DNA of 64,000 nt, taken from the NCBI GenBank assembly GCA_035627015.1, contig DASPMO010000154.1, positions 3,537 to 67,536 on the forward strand. The letters run 5' to 3'. Positions 161 to 21,745 of the stretch are shown in pieces (position 1 is the first letter of the stretch; each line of letters begins with the position of its first letter). The translations under genes were made by a program, and so were the position numbers. The DNA is from Thermoanaerobaculia bacterium. Lineage in GTDB: Bacteria; Acidobacteriota; Thermoanaerobaculia; Gp7-AA8. The notes beneath the pieces were generated by a model that ran no database searches, was not told the DNA's origin, and saw nothing but the letters and a program-made list of their open reading frames with translations.

Positions 161-1063
161 ATGGGCCACGCCCACGCGTTTGCCGCATACGTCCGCTCCG
201 CTCCCGTTGCCGGCGGAGCACCCGGCATCCACTCGCCAATCGGAGTGGCGTGGCTGCTCTGGCAGGCGGCCGTGGCCGGACTGCTCACCTTCGAAGAGTT
301 CCGCATCGAGAAGAGCAACCCGCCGGAACGGTGGCATGAGGCTGAAGACTGGGACGCGGATTTCGGCGGCCATCTGAACCTCATCTCGTTCGACGGAGTG
401 GTGGTCGGCTTCAGTTCGGCAGACATGGGCATCGTCCCGGCCGCGCAGCTCAGCGACCGCGCAACCGATGCGGCGTGGCAGCCAAACGGCGATGCTGCCG
501 AAGCGCTCGTGCGATTGGAAAAAGCGGTCGGACGCGTCCACCAGGAGCGGCGCGATCAGAACCGCGATTCGATCGCGGCGATCCTTCACGACTTCGTCCG
601 CTTGCGCGCCACCGGACCGGCCGTTCCCTGGGCGAAGACGCTGTCGTACGAGGGCATGCCCGGCGATCAGACGCCGGCCGGCACGGTTCTGCGGCGCAGC
701 GCGATTCCCGCCCATCGGCTGTGGCTGCGCCCCGCCCCGGGAGCGCCTCCTGTCGAGATGCAGATTCCACTCGTCCTCGACGATCTCGACGCGATTCGCA
801 AAGTGGCTTACGGCCCGGTCGTCGTCGATGACGACGCGGAAGACGCGTTGCTCGTCCTGACGGGAGACGCGTTGCAGTACCAGGAAGGTTTCTACGCCAT
901 CCACGTGCTGACGCTCGGCTCGCACGGCGCCGGCAACGGAAAACGGTCCGTGGCGAGCGTCGACGTCGAGAACCTTCGGCGCGCCGCCAGTGCATTGCCG
1001 CCCGCGCCTCCACGAGACGCTCGTGTGTCCGCGCCGCCGCTCTTCCAGCTCGATTGGGAGTGA
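161..1063 (+). CDS. hypothetical protein (first visible gene of the plus-strand cluster; 5' end uncertain)
   Basis: 300-aa ORF from the first ATG. The same frame has no stop back to window position 2, so the gene may begin upstream of the window. Its stop overlaps the next ORF start (1054) by 10 nt. No motif recognised. Confidence 0.5.
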   Translation: MGHAHAFAAYVRSAPVAGGAPGIHSPIGVAWLLWQAAVAGLLTFEEFRIEKSNPPERWHEAEDWDADFGGHLNLISFDGVVVGFSSADMGIVPAAQLSDRATDAAWQPNGDAAEALVRLEKAVGRVHQERRDQNRDSIAAILHDFVRLRATGPAVPWAKTLSYEGMPGDQTPAGTVLRRSAIPAHRLWLRPAPGAPPVEMQIPLVLDDLDAIRKVAYGPVVVDDDAEDALLVLTGDALQYQEGFYAIHVLTLGSHGAGNGKRSVASVDVENLRRAASALPPAPPRDARVSAPPLFQLDWE

Positions 1064-3771
1064 TCGTGATGACTCTTCTCGAAGTGCTCGACTCCGCCGG
1101 CGTCGCAGATCGCGACACCGTCGTCTGTGACTGGGAAAACTCGCAGTCTCTCCGCGTGCGCGGTGCTCCCGGTCGCGCGCTACGTCCCTCCGGCTCCGCC
1201 GGCCCGTGGCTCATCCCGGGCACCTGGTGGTCACAGGAGGGCACGCTGACGGTGTTCGACGCGACGGAGTGGGCCGGCTCGGGGGCGGTTGCCGAGGTCG
1301 CGTTCGCATCGCAAGGCGCAACGCTGTCGTGGCGCGAGGGGGGGAAGCAACTGATCGTCAGCATCCCCGCCACGGTCGTCGTCCGTGCCGTGAAGCCGAC
1401 GGAGCTCTGGTACTCGCGGCTCCCGCGCATCGGTGGCCAACTCCCCGACTACCCCATCAAACAGGCGTTCCTCCACATCCTCGGCGACACCGGCGCGGCG
1501 TGGTCCGGTCTGCAGTGGAATGCCCCGACGAGCAACGGCTTGCGGCTCACGCGATCCTGGAGCGAGGAAGACATCGTTGACATCGGCGGCTCGGATGCGC
1601 TCGTCGCGGTATGGCCGCCGTTCAACATCCCCGATTGGCAGCTGTACTCCGTGCTCCTGCAGGGCCTTCCGGTCGTGGAGTCGGAGCGGATGCAGGAAGG
1701 CTATTTCACCGCCAGCGTCTCCGTCGGCTCCGGCACGGCGCCGTCGACGTTCGCCGATGCCGCGCAGGACGAGATCGTCGCGGTCACAGGCCGGCCAGAC
1801 GTCATCGGACTACGCACGGCGCGCGGCGGTCCGCGGGCACTGTTCCTACGCGACCGGTTCGGAACATGCGGTGGAGGCATCCGACTGCTGTCGGAGGACG
1901 CCACGCGCGTCCAGGGGAGCTCCAATGTCGCCATCGACTTCGGCACCTCGCACTCGGCGGCCTGCTGGAACGACGCCGCTGGCGGGCCGACGTCCGTTCT
2001 GGCGACGACGGGCGAACACCTCGGGTGGAACTATCCGCTCGTCGTCCGAAGCGCCGGCGAACGCTTCTTCGATACGCCGTGGCTCCTCGGCTATCCGGCT
2101 CCGGCGTTCGAAGATGCGCAGCGCGGCGCGATCACGTACATCCCGAGCGGCATGTTTCTACGGGAGATCACCGACACGCCGGCGGACAGCATCGCCGACT
2201 GGACGAAGAAGCTCCCGTTCGTCCACTACAGTTTGATGGGACCGGCCATCAACTTCGAGAAGCGCTCGCACAACGCGATGCAGCGCTGGCGCGCGGGGCT
2301 GAAGTGGTCGGAGAACGACAATGCATCGCAAGCCTTCCTCGCGGCGCTCCTCATCTGGATCACCGCGGTTCGTCGCGGCGAGGGCGCGACGCTGCGTTTC
2401 ACCTTCCCGCACGCATTCTCGGAACCGCGGCGTAAGCAGTTCGGCGAAACGCTGAAGAAGGTCGCGAAGTGGGTCGGCGAGCTGACCGGCAGCGGGTTCG
2501 CTCTCGCACCGCCGTGCTTTCCGAGTCGCGACGACAACACACGTCCGTTCGTTGACGAAGCGACGCCCGTCATCTCCGAAGTGATGAACAAGGCCGTCAC
2601 GACGTTCCTTCACATGAACGATCGTCGTCGGCAGGGTGTGCTGGTCGCCGACCTCGGCGGAGGCACGCTCGACCTCCTCTTCGCCGCGGTCGAAGCATCC
2701 GGGGGAACTCGCGACTTTCGCCTCGTCGCGGCGGAGAGCGTTCAGTTCGGAGCGAAAGCCGTGATCGAGCTGATTCTCGACAAGGTGTCGTGGCGCTTTC
2801 CCAATGCCGAGCAGGGGCCGGGCAAATTGAGAGAAGCCCTCCTCGAGCAATGGGCTCGCAGCGGTGAGCTGAACGAAGCCATCCTCTCGGCGGCGAGGAG
2901 CTCGAACGCCGACCGGACGTTCGTGCGCATGGCCGACTGGAAAGCGCAGCCGCGCATCGCGGCGCAAACGATCCTCGACCAGGTGTGCATCTACTTCCTC
3001 TTTGTCCGCGAGTACTGCGCGCGGTTCGCAGGCGGTGTGCTGACCAGTCCTCAACTCCAGGAGCGGATCCGCGGTGCGCGCGGCGCGGCGGCCAGCGACG
3101 AGCGGCGGCAGACGGACGTCGGGCCGCGGGCGCCCGGCCGCGGCTCCATCGATTGGGAGAGTCACGCGGAGCTGGACCTTGCCATCGCTTTGACCGGGAA
3201 CGGGTGGCGCTTCCTCGAACTGGCCGGCTTCGATCCGCTCCTCGAACAGGATCAAATCGACAACGTGTTCCGCGACTCTGTCCGCGAGCGGATCGCGGAG
3301 TATGCGGGGCTGACCGCGGTCGGCGAGATCTCGCTCGATGAACTCGGCACGCAGCCGAAGCTCATCACCTCGCAGGGGACTCTCGCCCTCGATGACCGCA
3401 TCGGCGAAGGAGGCCGCACGGTGGAAGTCGCGCCGAACGGGTGTACCGACGTCGCCCACCAGGTTACGAAGCCGTGGGGAACGTTCGTCTCTCCGGCGGA
3501 GCCGCGCTATGACCTGCCGCCCCAACAGAATTTGCGCGTACTCGATCCGCCGTTGACTACGGCGAACGACGCATGGTTCCGCAACTGCGTTGCGGCGCCC
3601 GCGGCGTCGCGCAAATTCGGCCAGCTCGTTTTCGACCCGTTGCCGCCGACCGCGTGGAACGACATCCGGAAACGGCAGGGGTCGGGCGTCGAAACACGGC
3701 AGATCTCCACGAACCGCGCATTGTGGGAGACGGTCGTCCGCAGTTATCTCGGCCTGGGCGCGGTCGTGTGA
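1054..3771 (+). CDS. divergent Hsp70/actin-like (ASKHA-fold) ATPase-domain protein
   Basis: 905-aa ORF with GC3-rich codons. Motifs: NVAIDFGTSHSAACW (cf. Hsp70 phosphate-1 DLGTTNS), VLVADLGGGTLDLLF (cf. phosphate-2 DLGGGTFD) and IALTGNGWRF (adenosine-site-like). An alternative start is ATG 1069. Confidence 0.7.
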   Translation: MGVIVMTLLEVLDSAGVADRDTVVCDWENSQSLRVRGAPGRALRPSGSAGPWLIPGTWWSQEGTLTVFDATEWAGSGAVAEVAFASQGATLSWREGGKQLIVSIPATVVVRAVKPTELWYSRLPRIGGQLPDYPIKQAFLHILGDTGAAWSGLQWNAPTSNGLRLTRSWSEEDIVDIGGSDALVAVWPPFNIPDWQLYSVLLQGLPVVESERMQEGYFTASVSVGSGTAPSTFADAAQDEIVAVTGRPDVIGLRTARGGPRALFLRDRFGTCGGGIRLLSEDATRVQGSSNVAIDFGTSHSAACWNDAAGGPTSVLATTGEHLGWNYPLVVRSAGERFFDTPWLLGYPAPAFEDAQRGAITYIPSGMFLREITDTPADSIADWTKKLPFVHYSLMGPAINFEKRSHNAMQRWRAGLKWSENDNASQAFLAALLIWITAVRRGEGATLRFTFPHAFSEPRRKQFGETLKKVAKWVGELTGSGFALAPPCFPSRDDNTRPFVDEATPVISEVMNKAVTTFLHMNDRRRQGVLVADLGGGTLDLLFAAVEASGGTRDFRLVAAESVQFGAKAVIELILDKVSWRFPNAEQGPGKLREALLEQWARSGELNEAILSAARSSNADRTFVRMADWKAQPRIAAQTILDQVCIYFLFVREYCARFAGGVLTSPQLQERIRGARGAAASDERRQTDVGPRAPGRGSIDWESHAELDLAIALTGNGWRFLELAGFDPLLEQDQIDNVFRDSVRERIAEYAGLTAVGEISLDELGTQPKLITSQGTLALDDRIGEGGRTVEVAPNGCTDVAHQVTKPWGTFVSPAEPRYDLPPQQNLRVLDPPLTTANDAWFRNCVAAPAASRKFGQLVFDPLPPTAWNDIRKRQGSGVETRQISTNRALWETVVRSYLGLGAVV

Positions 3772-3779
3772 GGGCACGC

Positions 3780-5288
3780 ATGTCGACGATTGTCGAGCGC
3801 CGTTGGTCGCGCAGCCGCGGATTTGCTCGCGGACGGACACCCGCAATCGCGATGGCAATCGCTTGCGCACTGCAGATCGAGATGCACGCCATGGATCTTC
3901 TCCGTATCGACCCGCCCATCGGAAGCGTCGCCGGCGGAGACCGCGTCACGATCCATGTCGTCACCGGCAGGAACAGCGCGGTCAAAGCATTCCACTTTGG
4001 CAGGACTCGCGTCCCCGCCGAAAAGAAAGCGGATCCATCCACGTTTTCCGCCACGACGCCACCGCACGGTGGAGGTGGCGATGCGGTGATTCCAGGCGTA
4101 TACGAACAAACGGTCAAGATCGAGTTTGAAAACGGCAACGCAATCGCTGCCGGCTCTTTTATCTATATCGACAAAACGCACGACCCCGCGCAGGGGATCG
4201 TGTCGCTGAAACCGGCTCACGGTCGTGTCGCGGGCGGCGAGCACGTGGCCATCCAAGCGCCGGCTTTGGCCGCGCACCACGGGTGCACCAGCCTGCAAGC
4301 CCTTTTCCGCGGCGCAGGAGTAGAGGTGCTGTCATCCGACGCATCGACTGGAACGATCACCGTCGTTACGCCGCCAATCGACATCGCGAACACCGAAGAG
4401 GTGCCGGTCGAGCTGCGATGCGAGGGAAAGACGATCGCTACGGGCACGTTTGTCTACACGCCCGCGCCCAAATCGCCCGAGCCCCCGCCGCCCCACCCCA
4501 ACGGCGTGCCGATCGCGACGACTGTCGCCGTAGGTGCGGTGCTGGCGGCAGAACTCCTCTGGCTCTTCAGGCGTCTCCAAGCGCTCATCGGCCAAGGTCA
4601 TCCCCCTTCCACGCAGCCCGCGGTCGAAAAGGGTTCCGACGTCGCCGAAACGCTGCAGCGCTTCGCGGACGAACATCGGCGTGCGATGGACGCGCTGCAA
4701 CGATCATTGGTGGACGCCGTCGCAACCATTTCGAAGGAGGTCGAGCGTCTCCGCGATGGCGGTGCAAAGGCCAACGAAAGCGGCGGTACCGGTGAAACGG
4801 ACACATTGCCGAAGGACCGCACACGCAAACCAGTCGGCTCGACGACACAATCTCTTCAACAGCGGGAACAAACGAAGCCGGAAGCGTCACGATCGAATGG
4901 GACGAAGCAGGCGTCGACGAAACGCTCCACTGACACAGCGGCGCCGTTCAGCCCCGAGCGTCTCGCGGACATGTGGAACGAGGAGCGGCGCTCGGGCGGA
5001 TCGTCCGGGGAACTGATTCGGTCACTGAATGCGGCGTGGCCGGGCAAGGTCGTCGCGCGCGCGTTGCGCGGTCTGATCGTCGTCACAGTTTCGAACGAAG
5101 ACGCGACCTTCGTGCTCCCTTCCATGCAGCCGCTCGTGCACGAGGCGACGATTCAGGAGTTCTTCGAGGTTCGTCCGGCCGGAGACGGAAAGAACACGCG
5201 CGTCGTGCACCCCGCGCGCGTTCCCCGCGGGACCGATCTCGACGGCTTCACCGCGGGCCAGATCACACGAGGGATTCTCGAAGCGTGA
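3780..5288 (+). CDS. single-pass membrane protein with N-terminal IPT/TIG-like beta-sandwich repeats
   Basis: Track ORF 3573..5288 trimmed to ATG 3780, 9 nt after the upstream stop. The discarded 5' part is Arg-rich and overlaps the previous CDS. Repeated segments of the type IDPPIGSVAGGDRVTIHV and LKPAHGRVAGGEHVAIQA are present. A hydrophobic helix VPIATTVAVGAVLAAELLWLF follows, then a charged region and a C-terminal domain of about 110 aa. Confidence 0.65.
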   Translation: MSTIVERRWSRSRGFARGRTPAIAMAIACALQIEMHAMDLLRIDPPIGSVAGGDRVTIHVVTGRNSAVKAFHFGRTRVPAEKKADPSTFSATTPPHGGGGDAVIPGVYEQTVKIEFENGNAIAAGSFIYIDKTHDPAQGIVSLKPAHGRVAGGEHVAIQAPALAAHHGCTSLQALFRGAGVEVLSSDASTGTITVVTPPIDIANTEEVPVELRCEGKTIATGTFVYTPAPKSPEPPPPHPNGVPIATTVAVGAVLAAELLWLFRRLQALIGQGHPPSTQPAVEKGSDVAETLQRFADEHRRAMDALQRSLVDAVATISKEVERLRDGGAKANESGGTGETDTLPKDRTRKPVGSTTQSLQQREQTKPEASRSNGTKQASTKRSTDTAAPFSPERLADMWNEERRSGGSSGELIRSLNAAWPGKVVARALRGLIVVTVSNEDATFVLPSMQPLVHEATIQEFFEVRPAGDGKNTRVVHPARVPRGTDLDGFTAGQITRGILEA

Positions 5289-5314
5289 CGCACGCGCCGA
5301 CGAAGGACGAACCG

Positions 5315-7132
5315 ATGAAAGACCGGAGCTGGAAACGTTTCACGATCGACGCGCTCTTCGTGGTGCTGTTCATCGGCTTCGGCGCGGTGTCCTGCACGCG
5401 CGAGACGCGCGAGTCGCCTGCCACGACGACCAAGCGGCAACCGGTGGTTCCGCGTCCGAATGACGACTGCCCTGCCTTTGCGCACCTCGCCGACGGGACC
5501 GGAGCGCTGCAACTGTGCAGCGCGTCAGGCGCCGCGTCGCGGCAGGAGTGCCCATCGCCGGAGCAGATCGTCGTCCTCGTCGACAACGATAACGAGACCG
5601 CGTCCAGACGCCTCGGTCGCGACGTCCCCGCCACGAACTGGAACGACCTCCTCGACGAGCTGATGGCGATCGGAAAAACGGAGTGTGCCGGAGGGAACCG
5701 TCCGTTGGAACGGCTGCCGGGCGGCTGTGGAACGATCCAGGGCGCGGTGAATGCCTGGAAGCTCGGCGCGTGCCGCAGCGCGGATGGCCGCCTCTTCCCC
5801 CGTTTCGTGACAGTCGGCAGTGGAACGACCACACCCGCGGCGGAGGCCGTGCAGCACATCGCGCGCGAGATGACGCGAGCCGGTAGCACGCCCGCCGTCA
5901 CGTTCATGGCGTTCGATGGAATCGTCGACGGCGACTATCGCAATGCCGCCGCGCGTCTGGCGTTCGCGGATGCCGTCGCCGATGCAGTCACTGCGGGCCT
6001 GAAGGTATGGATCGTGGCGAGCCCGATCGAATACCGCTACGTATATCTGTTCGCGCGGCCGCAGTTCGAAACATTTGCCGGCAATGCCGCTCGGGCGTTG
6101 GCCGAGGTGCGCGCGTCGCGCGGCGGTACGTCGACCGTGGCGGCATCACTGTCGGAGTCGCGATATCGCGACCCTGGCGAGCGCGTCGAACTGGCGGCCG
6201 TTCAGGTGGCGAAGCCGCCATGGCGCGGCGTGCAGTGGGACTTCAGCGGCATCGCGCTCCAGCATCGCGTACCCGCGGGCGATCGGCGTGCGGACATGTG
6301 GACACTCGACGTGAACCGCTGGGCGGCGGCAACACCGTCGCCGGTGCCATCCGGCGCGGCAGTGCGGCTTTCATGGAACGCGGAACCCTCTGCATGGGAT
6401 ACGCTCGTGCCGTTCGGCCTTCGCCTTCCGCCTCCGGCCGTTCTGCTCAACCGGCCGGTGAGCGCGGCGGCAGACGAACACGCGAATGCGGCGTGGGTCC
6501 ATGGCAAGAACGTCGACGTCGCGGTGTTGAACGATTGCCCGCGACGAACGGCGCGCGCGCCGCTCAGCCAAGGTGTCAGCATCGCTCCTGGCCGCGCCGA
6601 CTTTCTTCTCGTGCGCGGCACGGCGGCCAACGCGGCGTGGCTGTCGAGTGGCCTTCCCGACTGGCAAGGCGATCCGAAGAAGCTGCGGGCGGCGGTCGTC
6701 GCCTCCGCCGGACCGCCGCTCGCGGCAGCCATGCTGGTGACGCCGCGCGTGCGGCCGAGCCGATGTACAGCCGTATTGCTCGACGACTACTCCGGATCGC
6801 ATCGATGGGGCAGCGCGCACAAGACTCCCGGGTTGGAGCAGGCCGCGAGCGAGACTGATTGCAACTCGGAACAATGGTCCGCGCTGACCGAGTCGCTGCG
6901 CAATGTTCCGTATCGCCGCTTTGCACCGGGCGCCGCAAATCCGTGGCGGCCGACGGACGGCAGGGTCGCCGTCGAGACGTTCCTGACGGTCATCGAACGT
7001 GTCGCGCGGCGAACGGCCAACGACGCAGGCGCCGCGGAGAATCCATATGCGTGCGTTCTGGCGACGTTCCGGATCGACAGCGAAGCGTCGCGTCCAAGCG
7101 ATGCGCGCTGGCAGCAGGAACGTCTGCGATGA
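5315..7132 (+). CDS. putative lipoprotein, function unknown (weak vWA-like N-terminal strand)
   Basis: Track ORF 4973..7132 trimmed to ATG 5315. The N-terminus MKDRSWKRFTIDALFVVLFIGFGAVSC looks like a signal peptide with a lipobox-like Cys. IVVLVDNDNE weakly resembles a degenerate vWA MIDAS strand. Confidence 0.6.
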   Translation: MKDRSWKRFTIDALFVVLFIGFGAVSCTRETRESPATTTKRQPVVPRPNDDCPAFAHLADGTGALQLCSASGAASRQECPSPEQIVVLVDNDNETASRRLGRDVPATNWNDLLDELMAIGKTECAGGNRPLERLPGGCGTIQGAVNAWKLGACRSADGRLFPRFVTVGSGTTTPAAEAVQHIAREMTRAGSTPAVTFMAFDGIVDGDYRNAAARLAFADAVADAVTAGLKVWIVASPIEYRYVYLFARPQFETFAGNAARALAEVRASRGGTSTVAASLSESRYRDPGERVELAAVQVAKPPWRGVQWDFSGIALQHRVPAGDRRADMWTLDVNRWAAATPSPVPSGAAVRLSWNAEPSAWDTLVPFGLRLPPPAVLLNRPVSAAADEHANAAWVHGKNVDVAVLNDCPRRTARAPLSQGVSIAPGRADFLLVRGTAANAAWLSSGLPDWQGDPKKLRAAVVASAGPPLAAAMLVTPRVRPSRCTAVLLDDYSGSHRWGSAHKTPGLEQAASETDCNSEQWSALTESLRNVPYRRFAPGAANPWRPTDGRVAVETFLTVIERVARRTANDAGAAENPYACVLATFRIDSEASRPSDARWQQERLR

Positions 7133-13195: not shown

Positions 13196-14784
13196 CGTTC
13201 GCGGCGCAGTGGTGGGAGCTCGCCGCGGGTTTCGGCATCGGTTTGATCGTGGTCAGCGTCGCGGCCGCCGTGGCGCGGCGCCGGCATCGCCGCGCCGATC
13301 TCGCGTACGAAGTCGCTCTGGCGTCGATACTCGGCTGCAACCCCGAACGGATGCCATCGCTGCTGCACGCGCTAGCCGACGAAGTCCAAAACGCTCGCAC
13401 TCAATTCGACTATCTGCCGCGTTCCGTGCCCGAGGAGCCATGGACCGTCCGAACGTGGAGCACGAAGTGGGTGGAGTTGCTGCGCGACCGCGACGCGCGC
13501 TCCGCCTGGATCGCACGAACGTGGCTGGAAACGGGCGGCGATCGGCGCAGTCTCGACGACTTCGTCAAGGAGACGGTGCGGCTTCAATCAGACCTTCACC
13601 GTTTGCTCTTTGGAAAAGCCGAGAGCGCCGCCGTGTCGCGCACAGACTGCGTGACCACGTTGTCGGCCGCAGTGGCGGCAGTGCGCGAGCTACAGTCGCA
13701 GACGGCTCCCGGACTGTTGCGCGAGCTCGAAGATCTGCGCGCCGACCGAACGGCCATCACCCGCGAGCTGCAGAAGCTTCGTGACGATCTGAATCGCGCG
13801 AGCGACCGCGTCGCAGCGCTTGCTCCACTACTGACACTTTGCGATGTTGGCGAGAGCGATGACGACGCGCACGTCACGGCTGCCATCGAAGACGTCGGCA
13901 TGCTGCTGCTGGTCGCGCGGCGCGAAACGGAGTCGACTGCATTGAGCAAAACGGCCACTCTCGCGAGCGCATTGGAAGCTCGCCTGAAGGCACTCCATTC
14001 GGCCGAAAAGCAATCCGCGAATGCGCTCGCGGAGACACAGCGAGCGCTGGCACATGCGCAGAAAACCGCCACCGAGAGCGTACGTTTGCGAGAAGAGGCA
14101 CTCGCAACGTGCCGGCGCCACGAGGAGGCGGCCGGCATGCTCGCGGCGCGACTCGAGCTCACGCCCAACGATCACGAACTCCTCGAGCATCTGCTCCACG
14201 GTGAGGCCTGGACGCTTCGGCTCCTGCTCCTTGCTACCGAAACGACGTGGAGCTCAGCGAGCGCGCCGGTGACGGCGCAATTGGCAGCGTTGCTCCAGTT
14301 CGCGGACGTCCCCTCCCAATGCTCCGCCGCGCTTGCCGCGCTCCGCCGCCTCGTCGCATCCGATCCGCCAGCCATACGTCCCGTCGGCCTCGATGTCGTG
14401 GCGGATCTCTGCAGGCTCGCGGATACTGCCGCGCGGATCAGCGAGTTCCATGGGATCTATCGCTTGCAGGAACTCGATGCCGCCGCGCCCTGGGCTGCCG
14501 TCGTTGCGACGACCGTCAAAAGCGTCCTCGCCGCGCGCGGCGTCGAAGTTCGCCGGCCGCCGCTCCTGCAGCGCCTGGGCAGCGACTTTCACGCGTTCGA
14601 GGCCAATCACCGCGATGCTCCAATGACATCGTTCCACGCCATTCGGGAGCGGATTCGCGCCGAGGTCGACAGAGGAAACGACGGGTGCGTGGTTGATGTG
14701 ACGCAATCCGAGATCGTCATCGACGGCACGATCCGGCGCATCGGCGTTGCGTCGTGCATGACTCCTCATTTATGGCGCGCGTGA
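13192..14784 (+). CDS. membrane-anchored coiled-coil protein; C-terminus possibly GrpE-like
   Basis: GTG 13192 overlaps the upstream stop (GTGA). N-terminal TM helix: WWELAAGFGIGLIVVSVAAAV. Long heptad-like helical stretches are present (LRELEDLRADRTAITRELQKLRDDLNRASDRV). The C-terminal LAARGVEVRR...GSDFHAFEA...VVDVTQSEIVIDGTIRRIGVASC resembles the GrpE beta-domain pattern (weak). Confidence 0.6.
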   Translation: MTFAAQWWELAAGFGIGLIVVSVAAAVARRRHRRADLAYEVALASILGCNPERMPSLLHALADEVQNARTQFDYLPRSVPEEPWTVRTWSTKWVELLRDRDARSAWIARTWLETGGDRRSLDDFVKETVRLQSDLHRLLFGKAESAAVSRTDCVTTLSAAVAAVRELQSQTAPGLLRELEDLRADRTAITRELQKLRDDLNRASDRVAALAPLLTLCDVGESDDDAHVTAAIEDVGMLLLVARRETESTALSKTATLASALEARLKALHSAEKQSANALAETQRALAHAQKTATESVRLREEALATCRRHEEAAGMLAARLELTPNDHELLEHLLHGEAWTLRLLLLATETTWSSASAPVTAQLAALLQFADVPSQCSAALAALRRLVASDPPAIRPVGLDVVADLCRLADTAARISEFHGIYRLQELDAAAPWAAVVATTVKSVLAARGVEVRRPPLLQRLGSDFHAFEANHRDAPMTSFHAIRERIRAEVDRGNDGCVVDVTQSEIVIDGTIRRIGVASCMTPHLWRA

Positions 14785-14793
14785 AGTAGGCCC

Positions 14794-15222
14794 ATGGAGA
14801 AACAGGAACGGACGATCCTCCTTCAACTACAGGCGCGCTTCGGCGGCGCCGGCGCGGCGCGCGCCGGCGCCTGTGCGCGTTGCGCCGAGCTTCTGCGCGC
14901 CCGAAAAGGATCGACCGCGTTTCTGGCCGAGGTGCAACGGCTCGCCGGAGAGTACTGTCCACCGCCTCCCGATGCGGCGGATCTCGTCGCCAAAGCGACA
15001 GCGGCATTACGAGCCGGTGTCGGGCGCGATCTCACGCCGGAGGCTGTCGCCGCCTTAGTGGCCGCGGCGCAGCGAATTGCCGCGGAGCCACGCGTGCACG
15101 GCGAACGCACAATGCTCGAGCTTTGGATGCGCCGGCCGGAAGTCTTCTCCGAATCGTTGTCCCAGGTCCTCCTGCAACGTTGGCGTGAACTGCAGCGTGA
15201 GGATCCCGCCGGAAAGTCATAA
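14794..15222 (+). CDS. hypothetical protein
   Basis: 142-aa ORF, 10 nt after the upstream stop, co-directional, Ala-rich and helical. No motif recognised. Confidence 0.45.
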   Translation: MEKQERTILLQLQARFGGAGAARAGACARCAELLRARKGSTAFLAEVQRLAGEYCPPPPDAADLVAKATAALRAGVGRDLTPEAVAALVAAAQRIAAEPRVHGERTMLELWMRRPEVFSESLSQVLLQRWRELQREDPAGKS

Positions 15223-15286
15223 TCACGGTCTTCGGTCCTGCCGCGAAAAACTCAGGACCTCCGTCCGTCTATGACGACATCTCCCT

Positions 15287-16723
15287 ATGAATGTCGGCTC
15301 GACGGCTGTCCTGGCGAAGCTACGCGACGAGGTGCGCGCCGCGACGGATGCCGCCATTGCCGTCGCACGAGCTGCATCGTTCCGCCGAACGCGCCGGCGC
15401 GAAAAACTGGTCGGGACGTTGGAACTGCCGCCGTCGCTGCGGCCTGAGGCAGAAAAGCAGCGGGAGCGCTTGATCTGGTGCGGCCGCGTGCTCGACGCGT
15501 TGCTGCAGCGTCATGCCGTCACTTCGTCAGTGAAGGTTTCGCACGTCGCCGCCAGTCTGGCGGCGTACGTCATGCTGGAGCGTGAGCTCCCGGCCAATGT
15601 GCCGGAAGGACGCTCGCGCAAGGCGTTCGAGCTCGAATTGCGCGAGCTGCAGCGCAAACTGGAGGACGCCCTCGCCCACTGCGCGTCCGTCGTGAATCGA
15701 GCGACACCGCACACTCAGGACGGCGCTGTCGACATTCACATCGAAGCACACGGGGAGACCGCACGCATCAACGGCACCTCGGTTTCGGTGCCGTTTACGG
15801 AGAGCGACCATCGCTCGCTCCGAGCCGCGTATCGAAAGCCGCGCTCGGCCGCCGCGAGCGATCTCGTCGCGCCGCTCGTCGATTTCGGCCAGAAGCTCTT
15901 CCAGCTCATTGCGCCCGCCTACCCCGAAGACGCGGCTGTTCGCCTTCATCTCGAGAAGGCGGGGTGGCTCGCCACGTGCGCATGGGAGCTCCTTCACGAC
16001 GGCCGGCAGTTCCTCGCGCTACAGCCGTCGACGCCTGTCGTGCGTGTCATTGCAGGTCCGTCTGCCGCGGGCGCGCCAAATGAGAGGCCGCTTCGCATCC
16101 TCCTCGCGATCAGTTCCCCGCAATCACTTCGCATGCTCGACGCAACAGAAGAACGCCGCCGCATGGAGAACGCGATCGGCGGTCTGATACTTCTGGGGCT
16201 GGTGGAGTTGGACGTCGTGCCGGATGGCACGCTGGACACGCTTCGGCGGAAGTTGCGTTCTGCATCCGAGGGAGGCCGGCCGTACGACGTGTGGCATTTC
16301 GTCGGCCATGGGCGCGATCACGCCGGCCGCGGCGAGTTGGCCATGGAGGACGATGAGCATGGCGTCCATTGGGTCGGCGGCGACGAACTGCAGGTGATGT
16401 TTGGCGTGCACCCGCCGCTGCGCCTCGTCATCCTCAACGCCTGTGAAAGCGGAATCGAAGGGATCGACCACCCCCGCGGGGGTCTTGCAAGGACGCTGAT
16501 CGGCGGCTGCGGTGCGGCGACGGTGATCGCCACGCAGTTCCAGATCTCCGACTCCGCCGCCATCGTCCTCGCGCAAGAGATCTACGGCGCCTACGCTGCC
16601 GGTGCGGACATTTCCGCCGCGGTCACGGAAGCGCGCCGGGCGATCTTCTGCCGCCCGCAGGGAGTGGAGTGGATGACGCCGGTCGTCTTCACCAGAACGG
16701 CGCCGGATGCCGCGCCGCCCTGA
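15287..16723 (+). CDS. CHAT-domain (caspase-like) protease family protein
   Basis: The C-terminal half carries the CHAT His/Cys dyad context: YDVWHFVGHGRD ... LRLVILNACESG. The N-terminal half is helical. Confidence 0.8.
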   Translation: MNVGSTAVLAKLRDEVRAATDAAIAVARAASFRRTRRREKLVGTLELPPSLRPEAEKQRERLIWCGRVLDALLQRHAVTSSVKVSHVAASLAAYVMLERELPANVPEGRSRKAFELELRELQRKLEDALAHCASVVNRATPHTQDGAVDIHIEAHGETARINGTSVSVPFTESDHRSLRAAYRKPRSAAASDLVAPLVDFGQKLFQLIAPAYPEDAAVRLHLEKAGWLATCAWELLHDGRQFLALQPSTPVVRVIAGPSAAGAPNERPLRILLAISSPQSLRMLDATEERRRMENAIGGLILLGLVELDVVPDGTLDTLRRKLRSASEGGRPYDVWHFVGHGRDHAGRGELAMEDDEHGVHWVGGDELQVMFGVHPPLRLVILNACESGIEGIDHPRGGLARTLIGGCGAATVIATQFQISDSAAIVLAQEIYGAYAAGADISAAVTEARRAIFCRPQGVEWMTPVVFTRTAPDAAPP

Positions 16724-16875
16724 TTCCACAGCGGCGTTACTCCCTGCCAAGCCCCTTTCCGTGAGTCCGGAGGAACGCCGATATGCGGATTCTGTTGTAT
16801 GCTCGCGCGGACGCCCCAAAAGAGCGAACATCGCAGTCGGCGGCGCTCCGCGCACCGACAAGTGACCACTGGCCG

Positions 16876-17721
16876 ATGTCCGATCCACGCGATCTCCTCA
16901 TCCGCGAGCTGCCGCTCATCGAACGAATCACTCGTGCGATCTGCCGCCGCAATGGGCTCGATCCGGACTCCATCGAAGACTTCACGGCCGAGGTGAGACT
17001 GCGCCTGGTGAAGGACGATTACGCCATCTTGCGTGCGTACGAGGGCCGCAGCCAGTTCAAGACCTACATCGCCGCCGTGGTGCGGCGGTTGTTGATCGAC
17101 CAGCGCCGCCGCGACTGGGGCAAGTGGCACGACTCGGCCGAGGCGCAGCGCATTGGAGAGATCGGCGTCGACGTCGAGCGCTCGCTGCATCGGGAAGGGC
17201 GCAGCATCCAGGAGACGCATCGCCAGCTCGAAGACAAGTATCCTGGCGTCGCGCTCGAGACGATCGAGGTGATTGCCGCCCGCCTGCCGGCGAAGATGCG
17301 CCGCAACCGTGTCGACATCGACGAGGCCATGTCGGTCCAGACGCACGGCGATGCAGAGCGTCCCGTGGTTCAGGCCGATCTCGCCGCGCGGATCTCGACC
17401 GTCGTCTGTACGTTCATCGATGGCCTGCCCGAAGAAGATCAACTGCTCCTGCGTCTCCGCTTCGACTCCGAAATGACAGTTGCGCAGATCGCCCGTTCGT
17501 TGCACCGTGATCAGCAGGTGCTCTATCGCCGTCTGTACAAGCATTTCCACGACCTGCGCGACGCACTCACCGCGGCGAGCGTTGACGCGCAGTCCGTGGA
17601 GGAATTGATCGGGTCCGACACCACACTCCTCGACTTCCGCCTGAAAAAGCGCACCCCGAGTCCGTCCGAAGGAGATGAGAGCGCGGTAGCGGCACGGCAG
17701 GAGGAGGACACCTCGTCATGA
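16876..17721 (+). CDS. ECF-type RNA polymerase sigma-70 family factor
   Basis: Region-2-like: DFTAEVRLRLVKDDYAILRAYEGRSQFKTYIAAVVRRLLIDQRRRDWGKW. Region-4 HTH-like: LPEEDQLLLRLRFDSEMTVAQIARSL. The start is either ATG 16876 or the upstream ATG 16783. The stop overlaps the next gene start (ATGA at 17718-17721). Confidence 0.8.
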   Translation: MSDPRDLLIRELPLIERITRAICRRNGLDPDSIEDFTAEVRLRLVKDDYAILRAYEGRSQFKTYIAAVVRRLLIDQRRRDWGKWHDSAEAQRIGEIGVDVERSLHREGRSIQETHRQLEDKYPGVALETIEVIAARLPAKMRRNRVDIDEAMSVQTHGDAERPVVQADLAARISTVVCTFIDGLPEEDQLLLRLRFDSEMTVAQIARSLHRDQQVLYRRLYKHFHDLRDALTAASVDAQSVEELIGSDTTLLDFRLKKRTPSPSEGDESAVAARQEEDTSS

Positions 17722-20700
17722 CCGACGACATGAGCCGCTGCCCGACACCGGAACAGATTGCAGCGTTCGTCGCGGGGAACCTGTCGGGTGATGAATTGAC
17801 GATGGTGGCGGATCACTTGCGCGACTGTGAAGATTGCCGTTCGATCGCGGGCGACGCGGCGTGGGTCGATCGCGAGAGCGAGGAGGCCACGCCAGCGGCG
17901 GCGGAGCCGATCCGGCCGCCGCGGCGAATCAGCCCGTGGTGGCTGGCCGCGGCAGCCGCCGCGCTCGCGGGCATCGCCTACTTCACGGCGTGGCACGGGC
18001 TGGCGCCCGATCGCAATGCGGCCATTCACCGGTTGGTCGCGGCGGCCCCGCGCGACGGCCGCTACATCGAGCCTCGCATTACCGGCGGCTTCGCCTGGGC
18101 GCCGATGCTGCCGGTGCGGCGCGATGACGGCGAGGCACTCGAGCCGCGACAAATGAAGCTCGTCGGCGTTGCCGGCGAGGTGCTCGAAGAAGCCGCAAAA
18201 GACCCCTCGCGCGAGACACAACACGCAAGCGCGGTCGCCCATCTTCTGGCCGGACGGCCCAATGACGCGGCGGAAGTGCTTCGAACGCTGGCGTCACCGA
18301 CCGACGCGCGCGTCTGGAGCGATCTTGCCGCGGCTCGTTACACGGCCGGGGTCCAATCGAATCAGCCCATACGTTTCGCGGAGGCACTTGCCGCCGCGGA
18401 TGCCGCGCTGCGAATCGATCCCCGTCTTGCGGAGGCGCTCTTCAACCGCGCGCTCATCCTCGAGCGTCTCGGTCTGCGCGATCGCGCGCGCGAAGCGTGG
18501 CAGCAATACCTCGCCGCCGACACCGCCAGCGACTGGGCAAACGAGGCGCGGAAGCATCTCCAACAGCTTCAGCCCGTGAGCGACTTTCGCGAGGAGCTCG
18601 AGCGGCATTACGCGCACCTCGTCCGCGACGAGGCGGCAGCGCGCGCGCTGGCGCAACGCTACCCGCAGGAGGCGAGGCTGTGGGGCGAAACGCAAATCCT
18701 CGGCCGCTGGGCAGAGGCGTATCAGCAAGCGAAAAGCGAGGAGGCCGCGAACCATCTCCGGCTCGCACGCACGTTCGGCGACGAGCTGGCGCGGTCTCGC
18801 GGCGATCGGATGTTGCACGACGCTGTCGCCATCATTCTCGCCGCTGATGCGGAGCAGCGGCACGATCTGGCAGAGGCGCATCTCCACTTTCGCGCCGCCC
18901 AGCAGCGATTCATGGCCGCGAAGCCGATCGAGGCGGCGCCGCTGTTCGAACAAGCCGCGCGCGAGTTCGAGCGGGGGAAGAGTCCGGTCGTCTTGCTCGC
19001 GCGCTACTTTCTGGCGAACACCAAGTACGCGCGCGGCCGTCTGGCGGAGTCGCAGCCGTCGATCGAGCAACTCCTCGCCACCGCACCTCCGCAGTACCCG
19101 GCGCATCGTGCGCAGGTTCTCTGGCAGGCCGGACTCGGCAAGGCAGGCGACGGGAAGTGGGGAGCGGCGATCGATGCGCTCGACGAGAGCGTCCGCACAT
19201 TCGAGCGGCTGGGAGAAAAACGGTACGCCGCGGTTGTGCGCAGCATTCTTGCGGAGGTTTACGACCAGATCGGCGACCGGCGGGCCGCCGAGACGACGCG
19301 CATGCTCGCACTCCAGGAGCTGGGGCGTACCGAGGACTCGCGCCTGCAGGTGACCGTGCAGGCGGCCGCACGTGCAGCGGCGATGGATCGCGACTGGCCG
19401 GTCAGCCTTTCGTTCTTCGACCTGCTTCTGGCAATGCCGCGTCGCGGACGCAGCGATCTGCTGCAGGCGAACTCGCTCCTGTTCCGCGCCCGGATCCGTG
19501 GCCGCGTCGGACAGAGCGCCGGGGCGGCGGCGGATCTGGCCGACGCGACGGAAGCGATCGGCAGGATCGAAGATCCGGACGTGCGAGCGCGCGCGGAAGC
19601 CGATCACCTCGCGGTGACGGGCTTTCTCGCCGCGTCGCCTGCAGACGCGGTCGCACACCTGACGCGTGCCATGGAGTTTCATCGGACCAAGGGCCGCCGA
19701 ATGTTCCTGCCCGAGATGTATCTCGAGCGCGGCCGGGCGTACGCCGCATTGGGCAACCGGCCGGCGGCGTCGGCCGACTACGAAGCCGGCATCCAGGAGC
19801 TCGAGACGCAGCGGCGTTCGCTGCGTCCTGGTGACGAGCGGTGGGGCATCTTCGCGTCCGGGGCGGAGTTGTTCGACGAGGCCGTCGCGCTGGCGCTCGC
19901 GCGCGGCGATGAAGCAGCGGCGTTCGCATACTCCGAGAGAGCACGCGCGCGGGAGTTGCTCGACTCGATGGGCGATACACCCGCCGCGGAGGCGCTCGCG
20001 TCGCTGCCGCTGGCGCCGGCGGGGACGGTGCTGATCGAGTACGCCGCCCTCCCCTCCTCCCTGGTCACTTTCGTGGTGGACCGCCGCGGATTGCGCGTCG
20101 TGCAGACACCGGTCTCGCGGATCACGCTTGCACTCGAAACCGAGCGGCTCGCCGACAGCGCCCTAAGGAGCGACACGGCTCGCTTTCGCAAGGAAGCGGC
20201 GCTGCTCTATTCACGGCTGCTGATGCCGATCGCGAACGAGATCAGCGACGGCCGTACGCTCGTCTTCGTTCCCGACACGACGTTGAGCGTCGTGCCGTTC
20301 GCCGCGTTGATGGATGCGACCGGGAAGCACGTGATCGAGCGCAACCCGGTGGTGACGTCGCCCAGCGCGGCGGTGTTCGCGCGACTCTCCTCCCGCCCGC
20401 GCTCCGCCGAACGCACGCTGCGGTTGCTGCTCATCGCCGGTCCGGCGGGCCAGGAAGGGAACGTCCGCCAGCTCACGTCCGCACAACGCGAGGCGGATGC
20501 AGTGGCCGCCGCATACGACGAAACGATCGAGCCGAAGAACGACGACCGCGCCTCGTTCGAAAGCAGCGCGGCCGAAGCGGACGTCATTCACTTCGTGGGA
20601 CACGCCGACATCCCGGCGTCCGGTTCGGAGGGAGCGCTGGTCACCTCCCGAGGTGCGAACGGGCGGCTCGACGTGCGCAGCATCGCCTCGCTGCGCCTGA

Positions 20701-20996
20701 CACGCACGCGCGCCGTGGTGCTTGCCGCGTGCGGCACCGCGCGCGGACAGCGCCGCGCCGGCGAGGCGACCCTCAGCGTCGCGAGCGCATTCCTCGCCGC
20801 GGGCGCTCCGAGCGTCGTGGCGACCCTCTGGCCCATCGACGACGATCCCGCCGCGGAGTTCTTCCCGCGGCTCCATCGCTATCTCGCGGATGGCTTCAGT
20901 CCCGCTGAAGCGGTCCGCGCCACGCAGCTCGAATGGATTCGAAGGCGCGATGCCCCGCCCGGCCTCTGGGCGGCGGTCCAAATCATCGGTAGCTGA
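17718..20996 (+). CDS. anti-sigma (zf-HC2) - TM - TPR - CHAT fusion protein
   Basis: N-terminal CPTPEQIAAFVAGNLSGDELTMVADHLRDCEDC matches the zf-HC2 anti-sigma pattern. TM helix: WWLAAAAAALAGIAYF. TPR-like repeats are present (ALRIDPRLAEALFNRALILERLG etc.). C-terminal CHAT dyad: ADVIHFVGHADI ... RAVVLAACGTARG. The gene is translationally coupled to the sigma factor. Confidence 0.85.
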   Translation: MTDDMSRCPTPEQIAAFVAGNLSGDELTMVADHLRDCEDCRSIAGDAAWVDRESEEATPAAAEPIRPPRRISPWWLAAAAAALAGIAYFTAWHGLAPDRNAAIHRLVAAAPRDGRYIEPRITGGFAWAPMLPVRRDDGEALEPRQMKLVGVAGEVLEEAAKDPSRETQHASAVAHLLAGRPNDAAEVLRTLASPTDARVWSDLAAARYTAGVQSNQPIRFAEALAAADAALRIDPRLAEALFNRALILERLGLRDRAREAWQQYLAADTASDWANEARKHLQQLQPVSDFREELERHYAHLVRDEAAARALAQRYPQEARLWGETQILGRWAEAYQQAKSEEAANHLRLARTFGDELARSRGDRMLHDAVAIILAADAEQRHDLAEAHLHFRAAQQRFMAAKPIEAAPLFEQAAREFERGKSPVVLLARYFLANTKYARGRLAESQPSIEQLLATAPPQYPAHRAQVLWQAGLGKAGDGKWGAAIDALDESVRTFERLGEKRYAAVVRSILAEVYDQIGDRRAAETTRMLALQELGRTEDSRLQVTVQAAARAAAMDRDWPVSLSFFDLLLAMPRRGRSDLLQANSLLFRARIRGRVGQSAGAAADLADATEAIGRIEDPDVRARAEADHLAVTGFLAASPADAVAHLTRAMEFHRTKGRRMFLPEMYLERGRAYAALGNRPAASADYEAGIQELETQRRSLRPGDERWGIFASGAELFDEAVALALARGDEAAAFAYSERARARELLDSMGDTPAAEALASLPLAPAGTVLIEYAALPSSLVTFVVDRRGLRVVQTPVSRITLALETERLADSALRSDTARFRKEAALLYSRLLMPIANEISDGRTLVFVPDTTLSVVPFAALMDATGKHVIERNPVVTSPSAAVFARLSSRPRSAERTLRLLLIAGPAGQEGNVRQLTSAQREADAVAAAYDETIEPKNDDRASFESSAAEADVIHFVGHADIPASGSEGALVTSRGANGRLDVRSIASLRLTRTRAVVLAACGTARGQRRAGEATLSVASAFLAAGAPSVVATLWPIDDDPAAEFFPRLHRYLADGFSPAEAVRATQLEWIRRRDAPPGLWAAVQIIGS

Positions 20997-21028
20997 ACTC
21001 CAACACAACTCGGAGAGAAGGAGAACGT

Positions 21029-21745
21029 ATGCCTTACAAGGTGCAGTTCGTGGGATTGGTGTGTTTTTATCGCGAGCACGGCGGCCGGCAGGTGTTGCTT
21101 CCGGACGGCCGCGAGCCTGGCGACGGCATTGAACCGCACTACGCGTCGATCCGCGTCGCGAAGAACGACGTGCTCGAGGCAAGCGGCTGGGACGACAGCG
21201 CCGACACGGAGCAGGGCACGTACGTCCTTCCGCCGTGCTGGGTGAGCCTGGAGGGCGTCGACAGCGACGGGACGCTCAACACCTCGGAGCACGACAATCG
21301 TCTGCCGCAGCTGAAGCAGATCGACACGAACTTCGAGATCGACCCGGAGCGCGCGCAGACGGTCGCCCGCTTGCGCATCCGCCAGGGCTCCCTCGGCGCG
21401 TACCGCATCCCCGGCGGCACGGCGGCGATCTCTCAGCTCGACGTGCCGCACGACGGCGAGATCCACGTGGCGATCACCCCCCGCGACGGCTCGCCCGAGC
21501 GCACGCTGCGCCTCCGCCCCGGAACCGAAGTGATGCTTGCGAACATGGCGGCCAGCGGCTACACGACCAGTACGACGTTCAACAATCACTTCAAGATCTA
21601 CGAGAAGCTGAGCCTGCGCCCGGTGTCGCTGCACGAACCGTCCTCCGTGCCTCTGGTGCCTCCCTCAGACTCGCAGCATCCCGCGTTCCTGCGTGGCGAG
21701 CCGATCGGACTGTCCGTGGACTGCACGAACACCGGCTGCTGCTGA
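21029..21745 (+). CDS. hypothetical protein (last gene of the plus-strand cluster)
   Basis: 238-aa ORF, preceded by ggagagaaggaga (SD-like) about 8 nt upstream. It ends in CTNTGCC. No motif recognised. Confidence 0.55.
   Translation: MPYKVQFVGLVCFYREHGGRQVLLPDGREPGDGIEPHYASIRVAKNDVLEASGWDDSADTEQGTYVLPPCWVSLEGVDSDGTLNTSEHDNRLPQLKQIDTNFEIDPERAQTVARLRIRQGSLGAYRIPGGTAAISQLDVPHDGEIHVAITPRDGSPERTLRLRPGTEVMLANMAASGYTTSTTFNNHFKIYEKLSLRPVSLHEPSSVPLVPPSDSQHPAFLRGEPIGLSVDCTNTGCC

Follow-up and report, generated by a model that had tools for sequence, protein, structure and literature searches.

We analyzed a stretch of 64,000 nucleotides (the window; contig DASPMO010000154.1, positions 3,537 to 67,536) of a 75.5-kb metagenomic contig, which NCBI labels as a Thermoanaerobaculia (Acidobacteriota) metagenome-assembled genome (MAG), and in it a cluster of genes that an initial annotation had numbered 1 to 12. 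In our judgement the chances are evenly balanced that this cluster is most of a rare, envelope-spanning conflict system (anti-phage or regulated cell-death), driven by nucleoside triphosphates (NTPs), of the FtsZl1 (Tubulin_2)/vWA class, borne on a defence island and probably switched by a pair of the DdvS/DdvA type. Comparison with other contigs shows a predicted conserved core, made up of a polytopic membrane protein, a tubulin-like protein of GTPase type, a cytoplasmic Hsp70-like protein of ATPase type (gene 2), and the products of genes 3–5 and gene 6. The part of the core that lies in the window, and the gene behind it, are as follows.

2–1063, plus strand: 3′ part of a tubulin/FtsZ-like gene, the last 354 codons of an 858-amino-acid (aa) Tubulin_2 (FtsZl1) protein, in a frame open from position 2.
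1069–3771, plus strand: gene 2, a predicted cytoplasmic protein of 900 aa with a beta-rich N-domain (~aa 1–290) and an Hsp70-like nucleotide-binding domain (NBD) with large inserts (~aa 290–800).
3780–5288, plus strand: gene 3, a predicted single-pass protein with extracytoplasmic IPT/TIG domain(s), a transmembrane helix (aa 245–263) and a cytoplasmic tail of ~240 aa.
5315–7132, plus strand: gene 4, a Cys-rich predicted lipoprotein with lipobox GAVSC, extracytoplasmic as judged from translation and hydropathy scan.
7129–8739, plus strand: gene 5, a predicted secreted protein (signal peptide) whose N-domain is joined by a Pro-rich linker to a C-domain with Cys451-His479-Glu505.
8723–13195, plus strand: gene 6, with a predicted signal peptide, an extracytoplasmic domain, a transmembrane helix (aa 431–449), a cytoplasmic middle region and an Hsp70-like NBD (~aa 900–1400).
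13192–14784, plus strand: gene 7, with an N-terminal transmembrane helix (aa 10–28) followed by a cytoplasmic region rich in Ala, Leu, Glu and Arg (hydropathy scan).

The tubulin-like protein is the core partner that had been read as an anonymous 300-aa gene (gene 1, 161–1063). The reading frame of gene 1 is already open at window position 2, and the 300-aa product is identical to residues 559–858 of the protein encoded at 7419–9995 of L003, the stretch of the source contig that includes the DNA upstream of the window. Gene 1 is therefore not a whole gene; it encodes the C-terminal end of a Tubulin_2 protein of 858 aa, the first 504 codons of which (start ~1.5 kb upstream) fall 5′ of the window. 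The full protein scored 31.6 bits against PF13809 (Tubulin_2; cut-off 27) and carries tubulin-type loops (T1, GGTGQ, at aa 9; T4, GSIAGGTGAG, at aa 165–174), which place it in the FtsZl1/Tubulin_2 family. Searched by sequence against the PDB, it gave tubulin matches at the T4 loop only, and these were non-significant. Just 5′ of it lies the membrane protein gene, whose product has four hydrophobic helices in a hydropathy scan. The Tubulin_2 model has been equated (PMC9871819) with families of FtsZ-like proteins described by Makarova and Koonin (PMC2875224), who predicted that FtsZl1 operons with vWA and membrane proteins encode membrane-remodelling machines (Makarova and Koonin 2010, PMC2875224).

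In other metagenomes, three single proteins of 1,625–1,730 aa (P0026; L026 1975–6852; L028 2270–7261) join a tubulin-like to a gene-2-like part, with the T1/T4 loops N-terminal and the gene-2-type phosphate motifs ~1,050–1,300 residues in. The order of the parts is that of the two separate genes on the source contig. Fusion in other organisms argues that the tubulin-like protein and gene 2 would act together physically. At the fusion locus of L026 a Ser/Thr protein kinase is encoded three genes away, an association reported for FtsZl1 operons.

The phosphate-1 and phosphate-2 motifs from which two Hsp70-like proteins had been proposed (DFGTSHS/DLGGGTLD in gene 2, DFGNSAV/DFGSGTIDL in gene 6) are present in the translations, and both assignments survived profile hidden Markov model tests, that of gene 2 a structure test as well. 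The single gene 2 sequence found no match in Pfam, NCBIfam, PADLOC or the PDB, and word-indexed protein searches with gene 2, gene 6 or a 15-sequence gene 6 alignment yielded hardly anything; relatives came instead from an exhaustive profile search (gene 2) and from contig scans. The gene 2 family, for which there is no Pfam model, is rare (35 clusters among 1.84 billion representative proteins in the exhaustive search). Its profile (27 sequences) matched solely Hsp70 NBDs in the PDB (DnaK, E 3.2e-9), and aligned to DnaK 3–46 and 174–222, phosphate-1 followed by phosphate-2. An AlphaFold2 (AF2) model built on the 27-sequence alignment (predicted local distance difference test, pLDDT, 84.5; predicted TM-score, pTM, 0.85) was compared with the PDB by Foldseek, and the top 50 matches were all Hsp70 NBDs (E ~2e-10, probability 1.0). 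The TM-score of the model to the target was ~0.46 because of the large inserts and the extra beta-rich N-domain. Residues at catalytic positions are conserved in the family (D290, K412, E497, D528, T533). The model thus gives gene 2 a predicted Hsp70/actin-like (ASKHA) fold. The most distant matches of the gene 2 profile (L029 7453–12151, and L027) are ordinary Hsp70 paralogue pairs with no tubulin neighbour, in which a 642-aa HSP70/MreB-like protein is paired with a 920-aa HSP70 with DUF3731 ('DnaK-related protein').

Gene 6 was confirmed as an Hsp70-like part set behind a signal-peptide-like N-terminus, a region of ~430 aa and a strongly hydrophobic helix at aa 431–449 (hydropathy scan). The ~430-aa N-domain has two conserved Cys pairs and a conserved HFIxLIDDSG strand, and the cytoplasmic part, NBD included, comprises ~1,000 residues. 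As a single sequence, gene 6 gave a weak BiP match in the PDB (E 2.5e-4); the family profile (15 sequences) retrieved the BiP and DnaK NBDs in collinear fashion (BiP, E 8.8e-8), covering BiP residues 72–231, 257–308 and 332–391. D911, K1017, E1106, D1131 and T1136 are invariant in the family, which also keeps DFGxSA, DFGSGTxDL, VSGRGALWP and MKxAVVxGA (phosphate-1, phosphate-2, adenosine and connect-2 motifs). These matches place the C-terminal domain of gene 6 among predicted Hsp70/actin-like (ASKHA) domains. Compared by hhalign, the families of gene 2 and gene 6 proved to be related (probability 87%).

With the Hsp70 chaperones (DnaK, HscA, HscC) and the YegD/DUF3731 paralogues, both proteins share the NBD fold, the phosphate-1, phosphate-2 and adenosine motifs and the Asp/Lys/Glu/Asp/Thr positions, and Hsp70+DUF3731 pairs emerged as the next-nearest relatives. 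Such resemblance, with catalytic-type residues conserved, might suggest that they serve the neighbouring envelope proteins, in export or folding, as dedicated chaperones or assembly factors with no signalling role, but several features make this very improbable. The PDB alignments of the gene 2 and gene 6 profiles contained no match to a substrate-binding domain. The canonical Hsp70 cut-offs of Pfam and NCBIfam were not reached: gene 6 scored 15.1 bits against Pfam HSP70 (cut-off 20.6), gene 2 gave no match, and 0 of 27 members of the gene 2 family matched HSP70. Pfam scans revealed no DnaJ or GrpE encoded nearby. The chaperones also differ from gene 2, with its large inserts and beta-rich N-domain, and from gene 6, whose NBD is covalently tethered to the membrane and to an exported domain; moreover, the gene 2 type is fused to tubulin-like proteins elsewhere. 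By these comparisons genes 2 and 6 are predicted Hsp70-like ATPase domains, not Hsp70 chaperones.

Between the two Hsp70-like genes lie three genes for predicted envelope proteins. The reading of gene 3 as an IPT/TIG single-pass protein held, with a TIG match above the Pfam cut-off (E 8.7e-5, 22.9 bits vs. 20.9) and one transmembrane helix in the hydropathy scan; orthologues are found on contigs L001 and L025. The gene 4 orthologues are 52% (L001) and 42% (L025) identical, and gene 4 had no Pfam, NCBIfam or PDB-profile match. For gene 5, described as transglutaminase-like, the Cys451, His479 and Glu505 pattern is invariant in an alignment of three orthologues, but the Pfam Transglut_core match is sub-threshold (E 0.08, 13.7 bits vs. 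cut-off 23) and the three-sequence family profile found nothing in the PDB. Gene 5 may be a papain/transglutaminase-like enzyme.

The initial annotation had asked whether the genes are syntenic elsewhere. The order membrane protein, tubulin-like protein and genes 2–6 recurs on two further metagenomic contigs, L001 (forest soil) and L025 (a JGI contig), so the core gene order is kept. Core identity to L001 is 45–64%, except for gene 3 (32%), and is 61–64% for the tubulin-like protein. Each of the two contigs breaks off within gene 6 or gene 7, and L001 holds the start of a gene 7 orthologue. The last ~90 aa of gene 7 are weakly similar (hhalign probability 40%, E 3e-4) to the end of C1, the protein downstream of gene-6 relatives at other loci; gene 2 was tried as the C1 counterpart and rejected (hhalign probability <1%).

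Among 185,579 species-representative genomes (GTDB), 18 loci of the gene 6 family were detected, or 17 distinct sites since L011 is the same stretch as L005. They belong to Acidobacteriota (Pyrinomonadaceae, Blastocatellia), Thiomargarita, Parabeggiatoa, Thiotrichaceae and Thiohalocapsa. Viral contigs (IMG/VR) contained no relatives of either gene 2 or gene 6, and a viral origin was rejected. At several Pyrinomonadaceae-type/Acidobacteriota loci the block behind the gene-6 relative encodes an 800–990-aa protein, a CAP-domain protein, a 1,100-aa protein, a VWA protein and Tubulin_2, and the VWA protein is bona fide (Pfam VWA E 3.8e-13). Four loci (L006, L007, L015 and L016) also have a secreted TPR-CHAT protein, an ECF (extracytoplasmic function) sigma factor, a transmembrane anti-sigma-like protein and an opposite-strand caspase beside the gene-6 relative; in three of the four the extra genes are upstream of it, and in L015 they are partly on the opposite strand. 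Because gene order at the Pyrinomonadaceae-type loci differs from that of the source contig, the association of Tubulin_2, a gene-6-type protein, a caspase-like protease and an ECF switch is seen in two architectures. At these four loci the Peptidase_C14 caspase is paired with a 161-aa SLOG-like protein (e.g., L007 1671–3235, minus strand), and the pair travels with the TPR-CHAT, ECF and anti-sigma-like genes.

Downstream of gene 7 the window encodes the sigma/anti-sigma pair and two CHAT proteins.

14794–15222, plus strand: gene 8, a doubtful 142-aa open reading frame (ORF) that is not called on the source record.
15287–16723, plus strand: gene 9, a predicted cytoplasmic CHAT (caspase-like) protease with a helical N-domain and a His341/Cys386 dyad.
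16783–17721, plus strand: gene 10, a predicted ECF-type sigma factor with a long linker.
17718–20996, plus strand: gene 11, a 1092-aa DdvA-like predicted transmembrane anti-sigma factor with zinc motif HLRDCEDC, a transmembrane segment at ~aa 74–92 and a predicted periplasmic TPR-CHAT part with His962/Cys1005.
21029–21745, plus strand: gene 12, 238 aa, the last gene of the gene 9–12 unit, called on the source record.

Gene 9 scored 82.9 bits against Pfam CHAT (E 3.6e-23, cut-off 24), and its dyad lies in HFVGHG (aa 337) and ILNACES (aa 382); score and catalytic His/Cys together identify a predicted CHAT protease. Its hydropathy scan has no hydrophobic segment, i.e., neither a signal peptide nor a transmembrane helix. 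The proposed ECF sigma/anti-sigma pair was borne out. Gene 10 matched TIGR02937 (E 3.4e-16, 59.3 bits vs. cut-off 42.9), with weak sigma r2 and r4 matches, and GGAGG precedes its ATG (16783) by 8 nt. Gene 11, which overlaps the sigma gene by 4 nt, has zf-HC2 (27.3 bits vs. 22.2), TPR and CHAT (E 1.2e-53) matches in Pfam; its Ala-rich transmembrane segment scores below the hydropathy threshold of 1.6 that was used. The best PDB match of gene 11 was 8rot_B/8rw5 (E 1.6e-10), collinear over aa 12–389, which includes the transmembrane region, and over aa 954–1075 (CHAT). The 8rot_B chain (991 aa) was named 'CHAT domain-containing protein' by its depositors; we took 8ROT and 8RW5 to be the DdvA entries because length and the positions of H862/C907 agree with the published protein (PMC11506125). 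On these matches gene 11 is a putative DdvA-type anti-sigma factor.

In Myxococcus xanthus, DdvA keeps the ECF sigma factor DdvS at the membrane, and its periplasmic TPR-CHAT, which lacks three helices of the CHAT domain, is proposed to self-cleave upon a phage signal (PMC11506125). DdvS transcribes a CBASS/CRISPR (type III-B) defence island from AA-N16-CGT promoters ≤50 bp from start codons (PMC11506125, PMC6061681). DdvA-like proteins have been reported in Myxococcota and one Comamonas only (PMC11506125). The present pair shares with DdvS/DdvA the order of parts in the anti-sigma protein (zinc anti-sigma, one transmembrane segment, TPR-CHAT with a His-Cys dyad), the overlap with the ECF gene, a location in a defence island, and repeated AA..CGT-type motifs near start codons. 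It differs in its phylum (an Acidobacteriota MAG), in a longer sigma factor, and in a putative regulon of a tubulin/Hsp70-like system and a Zorya-like operon rather than CBASS and type III-B CRISPR. Since gene 11 is a DdvA homologue, its TPR-CHAT is, by analogy, best read as a periplasmic sensor or self-cleaving switch. Of the two CHAT effectors proposed before, both are CHAT proteins, but only gene 9 remains a candidate cytoplasmic protease output.

The genes downstream are those of a defence island.

21752–29679, minus strand: Zorya-like convergent operon with ZorA-like, ZorB-like, P-loop/STAND-like NTPase and trypsin-like peptidase genes, a candidate for the same regulon.
27974–29176, minus strand: ZorA-like MotA/ExbB protein.
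27323–27964, minus strand: ZorB-like OmpA/MotB protein.
22905–25295, minus strand: 796-aa P-loop/nSTAND3-like NTPase.
21973–22908, minus strand: trypsin-like peptidase.
31730–34885, plus strand: third CHAT protein, 1,051 aa, whose C-terminal half matches the metallo-beta-lactamase (MBL) effector domain of the PADLOC LmuA, Avs1a and DRT models (E 1.1e-69).
35883–36245, plus strand: helix-turn-helix regulator.
36242–38284, plus strand: Septu PtuA (E 2e-183).
38281–39099, plus strand: Septu PtuB/HNH (E 1e-67), completing the Septu pair.
39112–39342, plus strand: MazE/PrlF-type antitoxin.

The Zorya-like operon matched ZorB (E 1.1e-27), ZorA (E 5.5e-8) and Pfam OmpA, Trypsin_2 and nSTAND3, and had no recognisable ZorC, ZorD or ZorE. 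The minus-strand stretch 21752–30361 also encodes a 211-aa protein (weak GvpG/SHOCT), a 168-aa protein, two unknown proteins and a 74-aa ORF. The third CHAT protein looks like a stand-alone CHAT-MBL defence protein. Because Zorya-like, Septu and CHAT-MBL genes are nearby, the locus is placed in a defence island, and it is from this context that a defence role is proposed here.

These neighbours bear on a different explanation, in which the cluster would be a housekeeping or developmental apparatus for membrane remodelling or the cell surface (vesicles, envelope shaping, cell–cell contact), and the ECF pair an ordinary envelope-stress regulator. Tubulin and actin-fold proteins are classical cytoskeletal elements, membrane remodelling is what was predicted for FtsZl1/vWA operons (PMC2875224), many of the components are membrane or extracytoplasmic proteins by hydropathy scan, and gene-6 relatives occur in large or filamentous bacteria (Thiomargarita, Parabeggiatoa). 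Rarity and patchiness of the two families, in contrast, fit accessory conflict genes better; the Zorya-like, Septu and CHAT-MBL genes flank the locus; and the cluster goes with caspase-like proteases and with a switch of the DdvA type, of which the one member studied so far governs a defence island (PMC11506125). We consider the remodelling apparatus unlikely.

A motif shared by leading genes of the candidate operons may link the two halves of the cluster.

15246–15270, plus strand: ECF-promoter-like motif AAAAAC-N10-CGTCCGTCT, 16 nt ahead of the gene 9 start (candidate promoter A).
L003 5741–5765, outside the window: second copy, 19 nt upstream of the 190-aa transmembrane/coiled-coil gene that heads the tubulin operon.
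29703–29726, minus strand: third copy, AAAAAC-N9-CGTCCGTCT, 23 nt before the leading gene (168 aa) of the Zorya-like operon.

The 13-mer CTCCGTCCGTCTA occurs at two sites, before gene 9 and before the gene heading the tubulin operon, with AAAAAC ten bases upstream in both. The third copy came from a relaxed search and has two mismatches to the 13-mer, with AAAAAC nine bases upstream. The pattern AAAAAC-N9/10-CGTCCGTCT was found twice in the window vs. 0 times in 100 shuffles, once more in L003, and in none of the other contigs examined. All three copies stand 16–23 nt before operon-leading starts on the correct strand. Such an arrangement would fit ECF promoters, with their AAC/CGT architecture, and is taken as a strong lead to predicted sites, short of proof. 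A different conserved non-coding element, CAGGGGTAGGGAT-N~17-CACTCCTA, is shared by L001 (6100–6140) and L025 (4486–4526), ~110–165 nt ahead of the membrane-protein gene that heads their operon, and is absent from the source contig; it may be a promoter or an RNA element. At the Pyrinomonadaceae-type locus L007 no repeated motif was detected, the intergenic regions having nothing in common.

Whether the two halves belong together is the point on which a further explanation turns: a tubulin-to-gene-7 operon might merely adjoin a separate DdvS/DdvA-like cassette (with CHAT gene 9 and gene 12) that regulates itself or something else, brought together by island clustering. Such independence would account for the ~500 nt between gene 7 and gene 9 if gene 8 is not real. 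Core and genes 9–12 are adjacent in this gene order on the source contig only, and some gene-6 loci lack nearby CHAT and sigma genes. The same rare motif, however, stands ahead of both units and of a third operon, and at L006, L007, L015 and L016 TPR-CHAT, ECF sigma, anti-sigma-like and caspase genes are placed beside a gene-6 relative, if in another order and with another split of domains. We hold it improbable that the two units are independent neighbours. The idea of one functional unit is favoured by core synteny on two other contigs, the shared motif and gene-6 relatives that sit, in another order, with Tubulin_2, vWA, TPR-CHAT, ECF sigma and caspase genes, but not in the form of one operon under the sigma pair, for which at least two operons of one candidate regulon are substituted.

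A number of points weigh against the conflict system of FtsZl1/vWA class with a DdvS/DdvA-type switch. A vWA domain was not demonstrated in the window's version: profile searches of the PDB with gene 4 and the gene 6 N-domain were empty, so that a vWA fold for gene 4 was rejected; the gene 6 N-domain aligned to the bona fide VWA family at the first strand and at a DxSxS-like loop, with an hhalign probability of only 18%; and an AF2 model of this N-domain from two sequences was unusable (pLDDT 37). In PADLOC, gene 6 gave one weak match, to the candidate PDC-M61B, and the other core proteins gave none. L001 and L025 end before the position of genes 9–12, leaving the adjacency seen once, and the gene-6 loci L005 and L009 have no CHAT or sigma gene within 10 kb. 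The motif pattern was defined after two of its three copies had been seen, its spacing from AAC to the second CGT (13–14 nt) is among the shorter ones for ECF promoters, and it is absent from L001 and L025, where the upstream element differs. Gene 10 gave no DdvS match in the PDB. A limited full-text literature search found no experimental study of FtsZl1/Tubulin_2 or FtsZl1/vWA systems since the 2010 prediction.

These data are consistent with a mechanism in which (i) the TPR-CHAT of gene 11, possibly with genes 3–6, would sense an envelope event in the periplasm, e.g., phage adsorption or injection; (ii) CHAT self-cleavage and intramembrane proteolysis would free the sigma factor; (iii) the freed gene 10 sigma factor would transcribe the tubulin operon, its own operon (genes 9–12) and the Zorya-like operon; (iv) the tubulin-like protein and gene 2 would form an assembly at the cytoplasmic portions of genes 6, 3 and 7, where GTP/ATP turnover would either drive local membrane remodelling or set a threshold for it; and (v) the cytoplasmic CHAT protease of gene 9 would provide proteolytic output.

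The gene models used here were checked by comparing independent gene calls on the source record with genes 1–12. Over the gene 1–12 region G+C is ~66–69%. The calls agree with genes 2–7 and 9–12, each on the plus strand, as had been stated for everything between 161 and 21745. Gene 1 is a fragment of a longer gene and gene 8 is doubtful, with the lowest G+C content at third codon positions of the set (0.685 vs. 0.73–0.89 in its neighbours) and no match in family searches. The junctions +8, +26, −4, −17, −4, +59, −4 and +32 were reproduced by the independent calls, but not −10: gene 2 had been started at TTG 1054, but its most likely start is ATG 1069, which is closely preceded by a Shine-Dalgarno-like GGGAG and leaves a junction of +5 to the tubulin gene. 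Gene 12 had no match in family-model searches. Across 13000–22500 no sigma-70 promoter-like sites were found, and terminator-like sites were at chance level only. Upstream of the window, at L003 4249–6357, three extra genes precede the conserved core on the source contig only: they encode a 357-aa protein with two transmembrane helices, a 118-aa PDZ protein and a 190-aa transmembrane/coiled-coil/transmembrane protein.

The earlier statement that this is no described system applies to the exact gene set, but its class has precedents in FtsZl1/vWA operons (PMC2875224) and in tubulin/HSP70 conflict systems (PMC7159879). Like the former, the cluster encodes a divergent tubulin-like protein with T1/T4-type loops together with several membrane or secreted proteins, and its distant relatives include a bona fide VWA protein beside Tubulin_2 and a fusion near a Ser/Thr kinase. 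Unlike them, the window's version has no demonstrable vWA and lacks both a P-loop GTPase and a kinase; the OmpA family is represented on the stretch solely by the ZorB-like protein of the neighbouring operon, and no coiled-coil segment is evident in the tubulin-like protein (with no formal check). The 2010 description, for its part, is without Hsp70-like families, CHAT proteases or an ECF switch.

Kaur et al. 2020 (PMC7159879) described DO-GTPase/GAP1-N2 conflict systems, with tubulin+vWA and HSP70+GrpE as separate themes, and such DO-GTPase/GAP1-type systems are enriched in bacteria with complex habits (PMC7159879). The resemblance lies in tubulin homologues, membrane proteins with an exported domain that is, or here may be, of the vWA type, proteins with an HSP70 domain only, and caspase-like peptidases within an NTP-dependent system. 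In contrast, the defining DO-GTPase and GAP1, the FNIII-repeat protein and GrpE were not found here, and the tubulin-like and Hsp70-like proteins are encoded side by side, with fusions of the two in relatives. Pfam contains models for DO-GTPase/GAP1 domains. A Walker A motif was absent from all 16 proteins checked (the cluster and its upstream genes), and there was no Pfam GTPase or GAP1 match; because the defining GTPase and GAP1 are absent, membership of these systems was rejected. With Zorya there is no more than an analogy, in that a sensor embedded in the envelope would be coupled to effectors in the cytoplasm; the core proteins have no homology to Zor proteins.

A more specific proposal, which we offer tentatively as a possibility, is that of an undescribed immune machine, an NTP-driven, filament-forming or threshold-setting membrane apparatus that would be built from a tubulin-like GTPase together with two Hsp70-like ATPases, induced through a self-cleaving periplasmic TPR-CHAT anti-sigma factor and acting by caspase-like proteolysis. 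One of the ATPases is fused to the tubulin in some species, and the other forms the cytoplasmic end of a transmembrane protein whose exported domain would be the sensor. If true, this would give a first functional entry point to the FtsZl1 tubulins, a family still uncharacterised, and the first case of a transmembrane receptor whose output domain is an Hsp70-type ATPase. The locus defines the partners of Tubulin_2 in a compact syntenic set, one of them fused to the tubulin-like protein in other species, and adds two new Hsp70-like families outside every Pfam and NCBIfam model. The receptor-like layout of gene 6 (exported domain, transmembrane helix, ATPase), if real, would be a new route for an envelope signal into the cell, and the DdvS/DdvA paradigm would be extended to another phylum and to cargo that is neither CBASS nor CRISPR.

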